Below are positions 24,001 through 27,000 of a DNA stretch of 34,026 nucleotides, in pieces. Source of the DNA: Candidatus Aenigmatarchaeota archaeon (GTDB lineage: Archaea > Aenigmatarchaeota > Aenigmatarchaeia > CG10238-14 > SpSt-28). The stretch lies in NCBI GenBank assembly GCA_032249395.1, contig JAVVFY010000009.1:1-34026 (forward strand). Reading direction: 5' to 3'. A program made the position numbers. Every line of letters starts with the position of its first letter. The stretch's first letter is position 1.

Positions 24001-27000
24001 TTACAGCCTTAGATATTCCATGGTGGGATCATGTAAGAGCTCAAGCCGTAGCTCAACTTTGGATAACAACTTCAATAAGCAAAACTATAAATATGCCATC
24101 TTTTGCTACAGTTGAAGATGTTTTAGAAGCTTACATTACAGCTTATAAAATGGGATGTAAAGGAATAACAATTTACAGAGAGGGCAGCAAATCAAAACAA
24201 GTACTATATACACCATCCCAATCAGAAGAAAAAAGAATAGTTGAAGTTTTAAGGTTAATCCAAAACGATACTTTAAAAATTATGAAGAAGCTTGGATTAA
24301 AAGAGCCAAGATGGATATCAGAATTAAAGAAAGGAGGGAAGATATCTAGGATGAATGAAAATAATAAAATAGAAAGATGTCAAAATTGTGAGTCTGAGAG
24401 ATTGATCTACCAATCTGGTTGTGTAACTTGTTTAGATTGTGGTTGGTCTGCCTGCTTAATATCCTAATTCTTTTTAATTGAAAAATTATCTCAATTTAAT
24501 GAAAGAAGAAATTAGAAGCCCAATAGTAGTAACTGTTGGTCATGTCGATCATGGAATGCTTTAAGGTATAAAACCTTAAAGCCCAAAAAGACGACTTTGC
24601 TAGACTGTATTAGAGGTACTGCTGTTGCTAAACTAGAGCCTGGAGAACTAACACAACACATAGGTGCAAGTTTTATCACTAAAAAAGTGATTGAAGATTT
24701 ATCTAAAGATTTGTTAAAAAAGATGAAAATATCTATAGAAATTCCAGGTTTGCTTTTTATAGATACTCCGGGGCATGCGGCTTTCATTAGCATGAGAGAG
24801 AAAGGATGTAACGTGGCCGATTTAGCTATATTAGTAGTAGATGTTAATGAGGGTTTTCAAGAACAAACTTATGAAAGCTTAAAGATATTGAAAGAATATA
24901 AAGTTCCTTTTATTGTTGCTGCAACGAAAATAGATAAGATTCCTGGTTGGAGAGATCAAAAAACGACATCTTTTCTTGAAAGCATTTCTAAACAAAGCGA
25001 AGATGTTGTTGAAGAATTAGACAAAAAAATTTACATGATTGTTTCTTCTTTAGCTGAATATAACTTTGATAGCGAGAGATTTGACAGAGTTACAGATTTT
25101 ACTAAACAAATTGCAATAGTTCCTGTTAGCTCTATAACAAAAGAAGGAATAGCCGAATTGTTAGCCATATTAGCTGGTTTAGCAAAAAAGTTCTTAAAAG
25201 ATAGGATAAAATGTTCTGGTAAAACAAAAGGAATAATACTGGAAGTTAAGGAAGTTAAAGGTTTGGGACTAACTCTTGATATAATACTTTATGATGGTAA
25301 ATTATCAAGAGAAGATTACCTGATTATTGGTGGTAAAGAACCAATAGTTACTAAAGTTAAAGCTTTACTTTTGCCAAGGCCTTTACAGGAAATTAGGGTA
25401 GAGAAAAAATTTATTAATGTTGATGAAGTCAACGCAGCAGCAGGAGTGAAAGTCGTAGCTCAAAATTTAGAGAAAGCTATAGCAGGCATGCCAATAAGAG
25501 CGACTAAAGATGAAAAGGAGATTCCAAAGCTTGTAGAAGAAGTTAAAATAGAAAAGTATGTTGAATTTGAGAAAGACCCAAATGGAGTAATAATTAAGGC
25601 AGATACTGTTGGAAGTTTAGAAGCCATGGTTAAACTTTTGAAAGAAGCAAATATCCCAATAAGAAAAGCAGATATTGGAAGTATAAATAGGGAAGACTTT
25701 ATAGAAGGCGAGCTAATTCAAGATAAATATAGAAAGGTTATACTTGCCTTTAATATAAAAGTTGATGAAGAAACAATAAACGAAGCAAGAAACTTTGGGT
25801 TAAAAATATTTAGCTCCAATGTAATTTATAGAATAATCGATGAATATAAGAAATGGATGGAAGAAGAGAAAAGAAAGGAGATAGAAACTAAACTCGAAAT
25901 TTTACCAAGACCTGTAAAAATAAGAGTTATTCCTGGAGCGGTATTCAGGAATAGCAAACCTGCAATTTTTGGTGTTGATGTTGTGGAAGGAACTTTAAAA
26001 CCAGGAATAACTCTTAAAAGAGAAGGAAAGATAGTCGGAAAAGTAAAAGAAATTCAAAGCGAGGGTAGAACGATACAAAAAGCAATAAAAGGAGAAAGAG
26101 TTGCTATTAGTATAGAAGAAGCTGTCTTTGGAAGAAATGTTTTTGAAAACGATGTTCTAATAAGTGAGTTAAGTAGAGAGGAGGTAGAAAAATTAAAAGA
26201 AGTTATTGATTATTTGAGAGAAGATGAGAAAAAGCTATTGATGGAAATTATTGGAAGTTAATTTTTCTTTAAACAACTCTATAACTTCTTTGAATTTTTT
26301 TCTCCCTGGCATATATCCTATTGGTTTCTTTGGAGAGATGTAATAAAATAAGGAATTCTTAACAATAGTTAAATCACAATTCCTCGAAAACTCAACGTCA
26401 TTTGGGCCATCGGCAAAACAAATTTTTGGACCATCGTAATTTTTAGCTACTTCACTCTTTGTATTTGATGTAACAAATCTATATTGAGAAGATGCAATAA
26501 TTTCAATATTTATATTTCTTCCGTATTTCTTTTCTAATTCACTAAAGAATCCTCTAATTATTTTTTCTGAAGAAGAGCTAACTATTTTTACATCATAACT
26601 TCTATTTTCGGTTAACTTTATAATTAAATCCAATAAATTCTCATCAACGTATAAATATGCTCTCTTTTTCATTCTATTCAATATCTCATCACTCCTTTTG
26701 TCCTCTTCTAGAAGGAAATAGTAAATCAAGTATAATAGGTCTATATTTCTGTATCTAAGAGCATATTTTAGAAAGTTTGCTACTGAATAAACTAGATTCT
26801 TTATAAAAATATCTGGATTAAATAGATAGAAGTATGCAAGATTCACTAAAGTTTGTTCATAATCTACGAATACTCCAATTCTTCTACCCATAAAAAAGTT
26901 TAATAGTAAAAAATAAAAATATATTAAGTGGAAGTTTCGGTAACTTACATTTGTATAGAACATTTGAGTGAAAAAATCTTCAATTAATAATAAATAACTT

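Follow-up and report, generated by a model that had tools for sequence, protein, structure and literature searches.

This study asked how Candidatus Aenigmatarchaeota archaeon (GCA_032249395.1, hereafter G000), described as a tiny hot-spring DPANN archaeon, obtains a contiguous GTPase P-loop in translation initiation factor aIF5B when the codons of that motif are separated in its DNA. We analyzed the whole of contig JAVVFY010000009.1 (34,026 nt; the window), in which all of the aIF5B features described here lie on the forward strand. Translation reproduced the layout proposed by a first-pass annotation: aIF5B is called from a TTG at 24597, past the P-loop, and its N-terminus is encoded from an ATG at 24499 in another frame. 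Exon 1 (24499..24556) opens with this ATG, runs through 19 codons (MKEEIRSPIVVTVGHVDHG), and ends one base into a Lys codon. Codon 19 is GGA at 24553-24555, after which frame 0 reads ATG CTT TAA; the 32-nt insert (24557..24588) was accordingly found to contain in-frame stops, as had been stated, with the TAA three codons in. Exon 2 (24589..26261) completes the Lys codon with two bases and continues from TTLLD to the stop codon. The 554-aa open reading frame called from the TTG is in a different frame from exon 1 and remains open backwards through the insert.

We excised 24557-24588 in silico, and the product read GHVDHG-K-TTLLD, with the P-loop GHVDHGKTT rebuilt, as the earlier proposal of cuts two nucleotides into each bulge had predicted. 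Three cut registers restore the frame in G000. The borders, originally derived from geometry and frame, were retained at 24557-24588, but a slide of 1-2 nt within the A runs leaves the product unchanged. The identity of the gene was confirmed: exon 2 matched the NCBIfam model NF003078 with 696 bits (cut-off 468) over profile positions 27-586 of 598, and its alignments began at residue 30 of 5fg3_A and residue 19 of 1g7r_A. A start at 24597 loses GHVDHGKTT entirely. The TTG start annotated at 24597 is a gene-calling artefact. The single aIF5B gene reported for G000 was confirmed, the copy number being one per genome. A BLAST search of the G000 genome revealed no second copy of the insert or its motif (best other matches, 12-16 nt), and the insert is therefore not a repeat family in G000. 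The sequence, the minimum free energy (MFE) fold, the frame-restoring excision, the variants in relatives, selection on both exons, the encoded splicing enzymes, and an RNA contig led us to conclude, with a probability of roughly 0.87, that 24557-24588 is an archaeal bulge-helix-bulge (BHB, tRNA-type) intron within the aIF5B coding sequence.

The MFE fold of 24540-24600 had a free energy of -18.6 kcal/mol (z -4.68), and none of 200 shuffles folded as well. It contained the UGG:CCA pairing, the AAU bulge, the 10-bp hairpin, and the 3' bulge described previously, with the central helix now spanning four positions. The 5' strand of this helix (H) is AUGG in the exon (24551..24554; fold, RNAalifold, and pair counts), and its 3' strand is CCAA in the intron (24583..24586; fold and pair counts). 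Three of the four positions pair in G000, and the fourth is an A.A mismatch at which five of the seven variants described below have A-U; the BHB motif of G000 is slightly relaxed in this respect. The 5' bulge, AAU (24555..24557), was identified by the MFE fold, RNAalifold, and cross-sequence geometry, and the 3' bulge, AAA (24587..24589), by cross-sequence geometry, being A-rich in 17 of 17 sequences; the cut in each is placed after the second base. The intron hairpin h' (24558..24582) has 10 bp (strands 24558-67/24573-82) and a 5-nt loop, with 98.6 % of cells paired across the variants and two pairs changed on both sides. The outer exon-exon helix h is formed by 24544..24550 (GUCG, bulged A, UC) and 24590..24595 (GA, CGAC), with pairing of 24544-47:24592-95, U49-A91, and C50-G90 in the MFE fold. 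This helix had been put at 3-4 bp, an underestimate for G000, where it has 2 + 4 bp (6 bp) with one bulged A; according to the pair counts it is weaker across the variants (83 % of cells paired). RNAalifold, applied to the seven variants, independently yielded a 4-bp central helix, a 3-nt 5' bulge, the hairpin, and the outer helix. In four of the seven variants, the two pairs closing the 3' bulge drop to one.

We also scanned the whole genome for BHB geometry. The loose scan returned 12,580 matches compared with 10,530 in a shuffled genome, and the strict scan returned 63 compared with 28-51 in shuffles. Because BHB-like shapes are common in this AT-rich genome, fold geometry alone is not diagnostic, and the weight of the argument therefore rests on frame restoration, conservation, and RNA.

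The comparison with relatives revealed seven variants of 30, 31, or 32 nt at one junction, all within a single subclade of the Aenigmatarchaeota genus to which G000 belongs, including the 32- and 31-nt inserts that had been reported for two other species (G003 and G007). The 30-nt variant keeps the frame yet contains TAA. A distant lineage has an 18-nt version at this junction, and at least nine other sequences carry a sister intron type 12 nt upstream; the insert lengths overall were 18, 29, 30, 31, 32, and 34 nt. In all 17 interrupted sequences (eight at this junction and nine at the upstream junction), one of the 1-6 frame-restoring excisions had canonical BHB geometry, namely two 3-nt bulges on opposite strands with a 4-position helix between them, flanked by h (exon-exon) and h' (intron), and the product of that register was a contiguous GH[VI]DHGK[TS] in 17 of 17. 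The central helix had four of four pairs in 14 sequences and three of four in the other 3, G000 among them. The intron 4-mer follows the exon (AUGG:CCAU, AUGG:CCGU, UUGG:CCAA, and UCGG:CCGA).

Pair counts over the seven variants agreed with the fold, with 92.8 % of 139 cells paired compared with 20-49 % when the partners were slid. Three pairs were changed on both sides (U-A/C-G twice in the hairpin and once between exon and intron), and the exon-intron double change brings a synonymous CAT to CAC in the exon; the compensatory changes noted earlier, including the synonymous one, were thus recovered. In the shuffle control on these seven related sequences, 5 of 500 shuffles reached the observed covariation score and 55 of 500 reached the number of double-change pairs. 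Introns were present in three of nine species of the genus and absent from the close relative G001; G000 and G007 were sisters (support, 99/98). The gene tree as drawn requires at least four changes of intron presence, and its starred branches permit a single origin. Related introns occupied two sites of aIF5B in several families of the order.

Selection on the flanking exons was determined between intron-bearing lineages. Exon 2 exhibited pS of 0.46-0.81, pN of 0.04-0.09, and omega of 0.02-0.06. The last 15 codons of exon 1 exhibited 3-9 synonymous and 0-3 non-synonymous differences per pair, with four synonymous and no non-synonymous differences between G000 and G007. Across lineages whose synonymous sites are saturated, strong purifying selection acts on both exons.

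Archaeal BHB splicing has characteristic chemistry: EndA leaves a 2',3'-cyclic phosphate and a 5'-OH, RtcB ligates the exons, and the released intron is often circular. The host encodes both a splicing endonuclease and the RtcB ligase. Domain searches located EndA domains at C2:53656 and C3:60241, RtcB at C7:30400, and archease at C1:132275, in agreement with the two EndA genes, RtcB, and archease listed previously. The 393-aa EndA is ARMAN-2-like, with three units, and aligned over its whole length with 4fz2_A (E 2.9e-89), which we take to be the ARMAN-2 EndA; the second EndA has 186 aa. ARAGORN predicted introns in 22 of the 45 tRNA genes of the genome, nearly all of 11-50 nt.

The first-pass annotation had lacked RNA evidence, a limit that has now been partly overtaken by one metatranscriptome contig from RNA run X17. 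This contig (record 6; 275 nt) covers 24434-24554 and then 24587-24740, skipping exactly 32 nt, with 2 nt of microhomology at the joint from 24554 to 24587. It is a single contig from one run, with a depth of 3.6 and 12 mismatches to G000 in 275 nt, and it derives from a strain approximately 96 % identical to G000. The insert was retained in DNA from another run, X4, in which contig 14 (1055 nt) spans 23779-24833 with no gaps and one mismatch. Spliced RNA from a related strain and the intron in DNA were therefore observed in different runs. The X17 contig matched G000 at 120/121 positions upstream and 143/154 downstream; the corresponding values against G000 were 114/122 and 134/152 for the intron-bearing sister G007 and no more than 105/119 and 124/152 for the sampled intronless lineages. 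The contig is closer to G000 than any of these lineages, and it falls inside the intron-bearing G000+G007 clade. Seven differences from G000 in exon 2 were listed, of which five are synonymous and the other two share one codon, with residues as in relatives. These data suggest that the DNA of the X17 strain contains the intron. RNA runs X16 and X18 contained no contig over 24328-24782 and, having none across the junction, are silent on splicing.

An intronless strain, or DNA carryover in the RNA library, would yield an identical X17 contig. The insert could accordingly be a real but unspliced DNA insertion, with the G000 aIF5B recently broken and the X17 contig derived from a sister strain that lacks the intron, or from that strain's DNA. 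The 12 differences in 275 nt and the patchy distribution of the introns, absent from close relative G001, would fit such an account. However, the interruption lasts in seven variants whose synonymous-saturated exons have an omega of 0.02-0.06, the ATG and the residues of exon 1 are kept, and aIF5B is single-copy. Across 80 metagenome loci, 80 genome loci, and 19 family genomes, moreover, the nearest intronless sequence was approximately 82 % (downstream) and 88 % (upstream) identical to G000, whereas the X17 contig lies within the G000+G007 clade. We consider a recently broken gene improbable. That the skip arose by reverse transcription or assembly, for example through a template switch at the 2-nt AA repeat that skipped the hairpin, is quite unlikely. 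The microhomology at the joint, the stable hairpin that it spans, and the low depth of the one contig are what such an artefact would produce, but it must also strike the single register in which the P-loop is rebuilt. The X17 matches listed include no unspliced contig over the site, and the comparative support for excision is independent of this contig.

Decoding of the intact message by the ribosome is very unlikely, whether by a programmed frameshift or by a hop from GGA over the hairpin like that in T4 gene 60. The stop two codons past GGA and the hairpin beginning 3 nt past it resemble gene 60, and G007 has GGA directly 5' of the Lys codon. A matching landing codon was nevertheless found in only one of the seven variants (GGA in G007), and the locus was not assigned to the gene 60-type bypass. 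A common frameshift was ruled out by the lengths of 18, 29, 30, 31, 32, and 34 nt, which demand different shifts; in G007, the exon-2 frame is itself closed by a stop that lies within the insert, 3' of the frame-0 stop. A frameshift product would place approximately 11 foreign residues between the G and K of GxxxxGK[ST], and the X17 RNA contig lacks the 32 nt. Expression in two pieces, a 19-aa peptide and a protein from an internal start such as TTG 24597, would agree with the start chosen by gene callers, but we find it scarcely credible: a P-loop needs its G and K[ST] side by side, the start codon is unconserved (locus L039 has TTA TTA where G000 has TTG), and selection on exon 1 would be unexplained. 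Two other classes of intervening sequence were rejected on size and frame. Group I and group II introns are built around a ribozyme core hundreds of nucleotides long, compared with the 32 nt here, and Rfam at the gathering threshold identified two tRNAs and no self-splicing intron model in the 34,026-nt window. Inteins are in frame and free of stops, have a C-terminal HN, and are followed by C, S, or T; the insert has 32 nt, is out of frame, and reaches TAA three codons in.

The BHB intron reading is directly supported by the anatomy of the locus with its frame restoration, the insert lengths, conservation and covariation, selection on both exons, the genes for the enzymes, and the RNA contig with the exact skip, and the original proposal of a BHB pre-mRNA intron was upheld on these grounds in every prediction examined. 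In the pre-mRNA, exon AUGG would pair with CCAA near the 3' end of the intron and set two 3-nt bulges 4 positions apart, between the 10-bp hairpin and the exon-exon helix. A splicing endonuclease, presumably drawn from the encoded 393-aa ARMAN-2-like EndA and 186-aa EndA, would cut after the second base of each bulge, and RtcB with archease would probably join the exons. Joining would rebuild the split Lys codon and the contiguous GHVDHGKTT, and the single aIF5B gene would thereby yield a working GTPase. On this reading, an essential, universally conserved translation factor of a DPANN archaeon needs splicing to have a P-loop at all, and the X17 contig is a first piece of environmental RNA evidence for aIF5B splicing.

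BHB introns of cbf5 were reportedly also studied by Watanabe 2002 and Yoshinari 2006. The cbf5 pre-mRNA of Crenarchaeota has a BHB intron, often with a relaxed motif, according to passages of Yokobori 2009 (PMC2738675), and these describe three features shared with the aIF5B intron, namely a short tRNA-type intron in a coding sequence, patchy gain and loss, and hosts with a broad-specificity endonuclease. The present case differs in its host gene (aIF5B, in the P-loop codons), its phylum (DPANN Aenigmatarchaeota), its endonuclease (ARMAN-2 type, whereas that of the cbf5 hosts is heterotetrameric), and the presence of two insertion sites 12 nt apart in one gene family. In passages of PMC7714728, the HVO_1309 mRNA of Haloferax volcanii is likewise a substrate of the archaeal splicing endonuclease; its BHB intron lies in the 5' UTR, an untranslated leader, whereas the frame and catalytic motif of aIF5B depend on excision. 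DPANN archaea have non-canonical short tRNA introns and an ARMAN-2 epsilon2 EndA (parts of PMC3239211 and PMC5829648). The aIF5B insert falls within the size range of such introns (11-50 nt in G000) and has the same presumed enzyme (the 4fz2_A match), but its substrate is mRNA rather than tRNA. IRE1/RtcB splicing of HAC1/XBP1 mRNA in eukaryotes resembles the proposed aIF5B case in combining a protein endonuclease with RtcB-type ligation to remove a frame-changing short intron; it involves another endonuclease and another recognition motif (paired stem-loops), and it is a regulated stress response.

Passages of PMC7714728 (2020) give cbf5 as the only archaeal protein-coding sequence with a tRNA-type intron, cited since 2002, and for pre-mRNA splicing only cbf5 papers appear among the references of PMC5829648 and PMC12397907; within those passages and two lists, the earlier statement that only cbf5 is cited as a spliced archaeal protein gene holds. 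PMC2738675 refers, through its refs 39 and 50, to genes "predicted" to contain introns. Among archaeal protein genes, a spliced one such as aIF5B is a rarity. Genes with such introns are split by gene callers or given a wrong start, and archaeal mRNA splicing is probably commoner in intron-rich, small-genome lineages than textbooks say.

The P-loop of aIF5B/IF2 also hosts inteins, which are selfish-type insertions between K and T of the same motif (GHVDHGK|T). They were found in G017 and G018 of the same family and also in 13 distant loci; their insertion point lies 2 nt 3' of the intron junction. Inteins are in frame, have at least 150 aa, and are removed from the protein, whereas the aIF5B insert has 32 nt, contains stops, and is removed from the RNA. 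A tentative and rather doubtful extension is that the insert belongs to a mobile BHB mini-intron family that, in DPANN archaea, targets the DNA encoding the P-loop of translational GTPases and moved by reverse splicing or endonuclease-assisted homing. A 4-nt "guide" (CCAA, CCAU, or CCGA) would have to pair with exon NUGG or UCGG immediately 5' of the cut, and the intron could thus move between the two ...TGGA... sites of aIF5B 12 nt apart (GTTGGAC and CATGGAA) and into other genes, its sites being those that inteins may use too. If so, the output of an essential initiation factor would depend on tRNA-splicing enzymes. The compact system (a 60-nt substrate and a 393-aa enzyme) offers a testbed for how BHB introns choose and colonize sites used by inteins.

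The phylum-wide aIF5B screen returned 341 matches, and its counts of interrupted genes are minima among the 150 matches listed. In G087, the match began at residue 17 of an 872-aa open frame in which the motif check found nothing; this case may be an intein. An apparent joint from 24556 to 24927 in run X4 (a 370-nt skip) had 21 nt on one side and came from another organism's aIF5B contig, and it was disregarded. The homology of that contig to G000 ends exactly at the 5' intron border.

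The annotated aIF5B (infB) reading frame in the source genome G000, a 0.75-Mb assembly of a hot-spring Candidatus Aenigmatarchaeota (DPANN), runs on the plus strand from a TTG at 24597 to 26261 and encodes 554 aa. It scored 696 bits against the archaeal IF-2/aIF5B equivalog NF003078 (cut-off 468), with a match beginning only at profile position 27 of 598, and its alignment to solved structures began at residue 30 (5fg3_A) or 19 (1g7r_A), past the GTPase G1 motif. Exon 1 (24499-24556, plus strand), which lies in a different frame, reads MKEEIRSPIVVTVGHVDHG from the ATG at 24499 and then continues in the same frame into ATG CTT TAA. 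Excision of 24557-24588 joined GGA A to AG ACG and yielded a contiguous GHVDHGKTTLLD. Three registers restored the frame; the A runs at the borders allow the cut to slide by 1-2 bases without changing the product. These results bear out the gene layout proposed in the first-pass annotation: a start called past the P-loop, an N-terminus in another frame, an insert with stops, and a P-loop restored by its removal. The gene was also confirmed to be single copy, the two further weak matches being other GTPases.

The minimum free energy (MFE) fold of 24540-24600 had an energy of -18.6 kcal/mol (z = -4.68), a stability matched by none of 200 dinucleotide shuffles. On the plus strand, it comprised an outer exon-exon helix (24544-24547 with 24592-24595, a bulged A48, and the pairs U49-A91 and C50-G90, numbered by their last two digits), a central helix UGG:CCA (24552-24554 with 24583-24585), a 3-nt 5' bulge AAU (24555-24557), a 10-bp intron hairpin (24558-24567 with 24573-24582), and an A-rich bulge 3' of the central helix. 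With A51 opposite A86 taken as a fourth central-helix position, the bulges lie on opposite strands four positions apart; cleaving each bulge behind its second base puts the cuts at 24556/57 and 24588/89, in the bulge-helix-bulge (BHB) register. The motif is thus a slightly relaxed BHB owing to the A.A mismatch. The central helix, AAU bulge, and hairpin agree with the architecture claimed earlier, whereas the outer helix is not a helix of 3-4 bp but one of 4+2 pairs with a bulged A48.

The insert was present in three of the nine species genomes of the genus, namely G000 (32 nt), G003 (32 nt), and G007 (31 nt), the latter two as previously claimed; the motif was uninterrupted in G001, G002, G004, G005, G006, and G008. 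Among the 19 genomes of the family, the same three carried it, 14 were contiguous, and two (G017 and G018) contained an intein. The 80 metagenome loci included seven with an insert of 30, 31, or 32 nt at the G000 junction, 64 contiguous loci, seven inteins (...HN|T), one second-site insert, and one locus short of the site; the 80 species-genome loci included 70 contiguous, six intein-like, and four with short inserts. Seven distinct variants were found at the G000 junction, and the 30-nt variant is in frame yet contains TAA. An Aenigmatarchaeota MAG locus that is 68 % identical across its first 120 residues (L167) carries an insert of 18 nt at exactly this junction (L167:580-600; GGG A|...|AG ACC), with a 4-bp hairpin that has the CUUAAGG core in common; few mRNA introns could conceivably be shorter.

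The His codon of GH[VI]DHG, 12 nt upstream, contains a second insertion site (24541-24545 in the window, GGA C|AT), with inserts of 29-34 nt. It was occupied throughout genus g13 (all five genomes, G078-G082), as well as in G110, G151, L067, and L148. In the second-site loci (L067, L148, and L216-L222), all four positions of the central helix pair (UUGG:CCAA or UCGG:CCGA), and the 3' bulge is rich in A. These counts of interrupted genes are lower bounds taken from the best 150 of 341 phylum matches. We enumerated every excision restoring P..GH[VI]DHGK[TS]..D in 17 interrupted sequences, each of which offered 1-6 registers. Canonical BHB geometry with an A-rich 3' bulge occurred in one register of each of the 17 (central helix 4/4 in 14 and 3/4 in three); the best register was picked per sequence, which biases toward the BHB model, but the choice was among six at most. 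The intron 4-mer follows the exon (AUGG:CCAU or CCGU, UUGG:CCAA, UCGG:CCGA), and UCGG:CCGA goes along with a CTC codon in place of GTT in g13.

For the seven variants at the G000 junction, RNAalifold recovered the hairpin and both the outer and the 4-bp central helices, together with the 3-nt 5' bulge. Under the explicit structure, 92.8 % of 139 cells paired, compared with 20-49 % when partners were slid by 1-3 columns. The compensatory changes claimed earlier were recovered as double-sided changes in three pairs, two in the hairpin and one exon-intron pair (U-A to C-G) whose exon side is synonymous (CAT to CAC). The significance of this covariation was modest for only seven, mutually related sequences: the observed score was reached by 5 of 500 shuffles and the number of double-change pairs by 55 of 500.

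Parts of 23600-26300 occurred in 20 public runs, including five metatranscriptomes with small shares. We compared three metatranscriptomes (X16, X17, and X18) and one independent DNA run (X4) with the window. A single X17 RNA contig (275 nt, depth 3.6) covered 24434-24554 and resumed at 24587-24740, skipping 32 nt equal to the predicted intron, with 2 nt fitting either side; the X4 DNA contig (1055 nt, 23779-24833) was gap-free with one mismatch. Coverage in X16 and X18 fell short of the site. The X17 contig differed from G000 at 1 of 121 nt upstream and 11 of 154 nt downstream, indicating another strain. The lack of RNA data admitted in the first-pass annotation is filled in part, by this one contig with the exact 32-nt skip. 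The contig was nearer to G000 than was any other sampled lineage: intronless lineages matched G000 at no more than 105/119 positions upstream and 124/152 downstream, and the intron-bearing G007 at 114/122 and 134/152. On the gene tree, G007 is the sister of G000 (support 99/98), and phylogenetic bracketing predicts the intron in the DNA of the X17 strain. Of seven listed exon-2 differences between the contig and G000, five were synonymous, and the other two, in one codon, give residues of relatives.

Among intron-bearing lineages, exon 2 had pS of 0.46-0.81 and pN of 0.04-0.09, with omega of 0.02-0.06 wherever computable; the 15 codons at the 3' end of exon 1 showed 3-9 synonymous and 0-3 non-synonymous differences per pair (4 and 0 for G000 and G007). 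With this purifying pattern in both exons and only one aIF5B in G000, the gene is therefore no pseudogene, and the insert has to be removed or bypassed. Bypass by recoding was ruled out as a common mechanism, because insert lengths vary (18, 29, 30, 31, 32, and 34 nt), in G007 the frame-0 stop is followed by a stop in the exon-2 frame, GxxxxGK[ST] would be split in any frameshift product, and a hop would find its GGA landing codon in only one of seven variants. We consider 24557-24588 very probably to be a genuine pre-mRNA intron of BHB type within aIF5B (probability about 0.87).

G000 encodes, as noted previously, RtcB, archease, and two EndA-family proteins; the latter two differ in architecture. 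The 393-aa EndA (C3:58741-61986; L212:1192-2370, minus strand) aligned over its full length to PDB 4fz2_A (E 2.9e-89), which we take to be the ARMAN-2 three-unit epsilon-type enzyme; the other, of 186 aa on C2, is of alpha type. ARAGORN called introns in 22 of 45 tRNA genes, and a length of 32 nt is ordinary for this splicing system because nearly all of them measure 11-50 nt. A 126-nt tRNA gene at 29202-29327 (plus strand; Rfam 53 bits) was missed by default ARAGORN and detected only when introns were allowed for, with one of 32 nt; the gene may contain several. According to PMC5829648 and PMC3239211, epsilon2 and (alpha-beta)2 EndA types cleave relaxed motifs.

The intron is of a known kind with very few members so far, to which aIF5B adds one. 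The earlier statement that cbf5 is the sole cited spliced archaeal protein gene agrees with PMC7714728 and PMC2738675, except that the former adds a Haloferax 5'-UTR intron and the latter mentions earlier predictions of introns in other genes, with splicing unconfirmed; nothing newer was cited in the reference list of a 2025 endonuclease paper (PMC12397907) or in passages of a 2026 splicing review (PMC13149111). Among papers available without subscription, our search found none linking aIF5B to a BHB intron or reporting a DPANN spliced protein-coding gene, and the term aIF5B was absent among the top matches listed. The aIF5B case brings a first RNA observation and, within one motif, a second site of insertion.

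A gene tree was built from 900 nt of exon 2 in 29 rows, leaving out L045 (without the site), L009 and L011 (C-terminal fragments), and L008 (a divergent second G004 copy). All ten intron rows fell within one 18-row subclade (support 90/96), alongside eight intronless rows. Intron presence required four changes on the drawn tree, and the starred branches are compatible with a single origin. No second copy of the intron sequence was found in the G000 genome.

The aIF5B P-loop inteins lie between K and T (GH.DHGK|C ... HN|T), a classical intein site that follows the intron junction by 2 nt. They occur in L119 and L120 (G017 and G018 of the same family, GHIDHGK|C...), L048, L071, L076, L087, L088, L091, L093, and six loci among L131-L210; almost the same site is used by intron and intein in sister genera. 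In G087 (L223; G087:C2:56080-57500), the aIF5B match starts from residue 17 in an open frame of 872 aa, a motif check for the K-T-T-L-L-D anchor found none, and the interruption is possibly a large intein. In G000, the open frame of the aIF2-gamma gene (C1, about 102000-103400, minus strand) is 931 aa long, and its P-loop is interrupted by an intein-like insert that ends ...LLHN|TVLVQALTGK.
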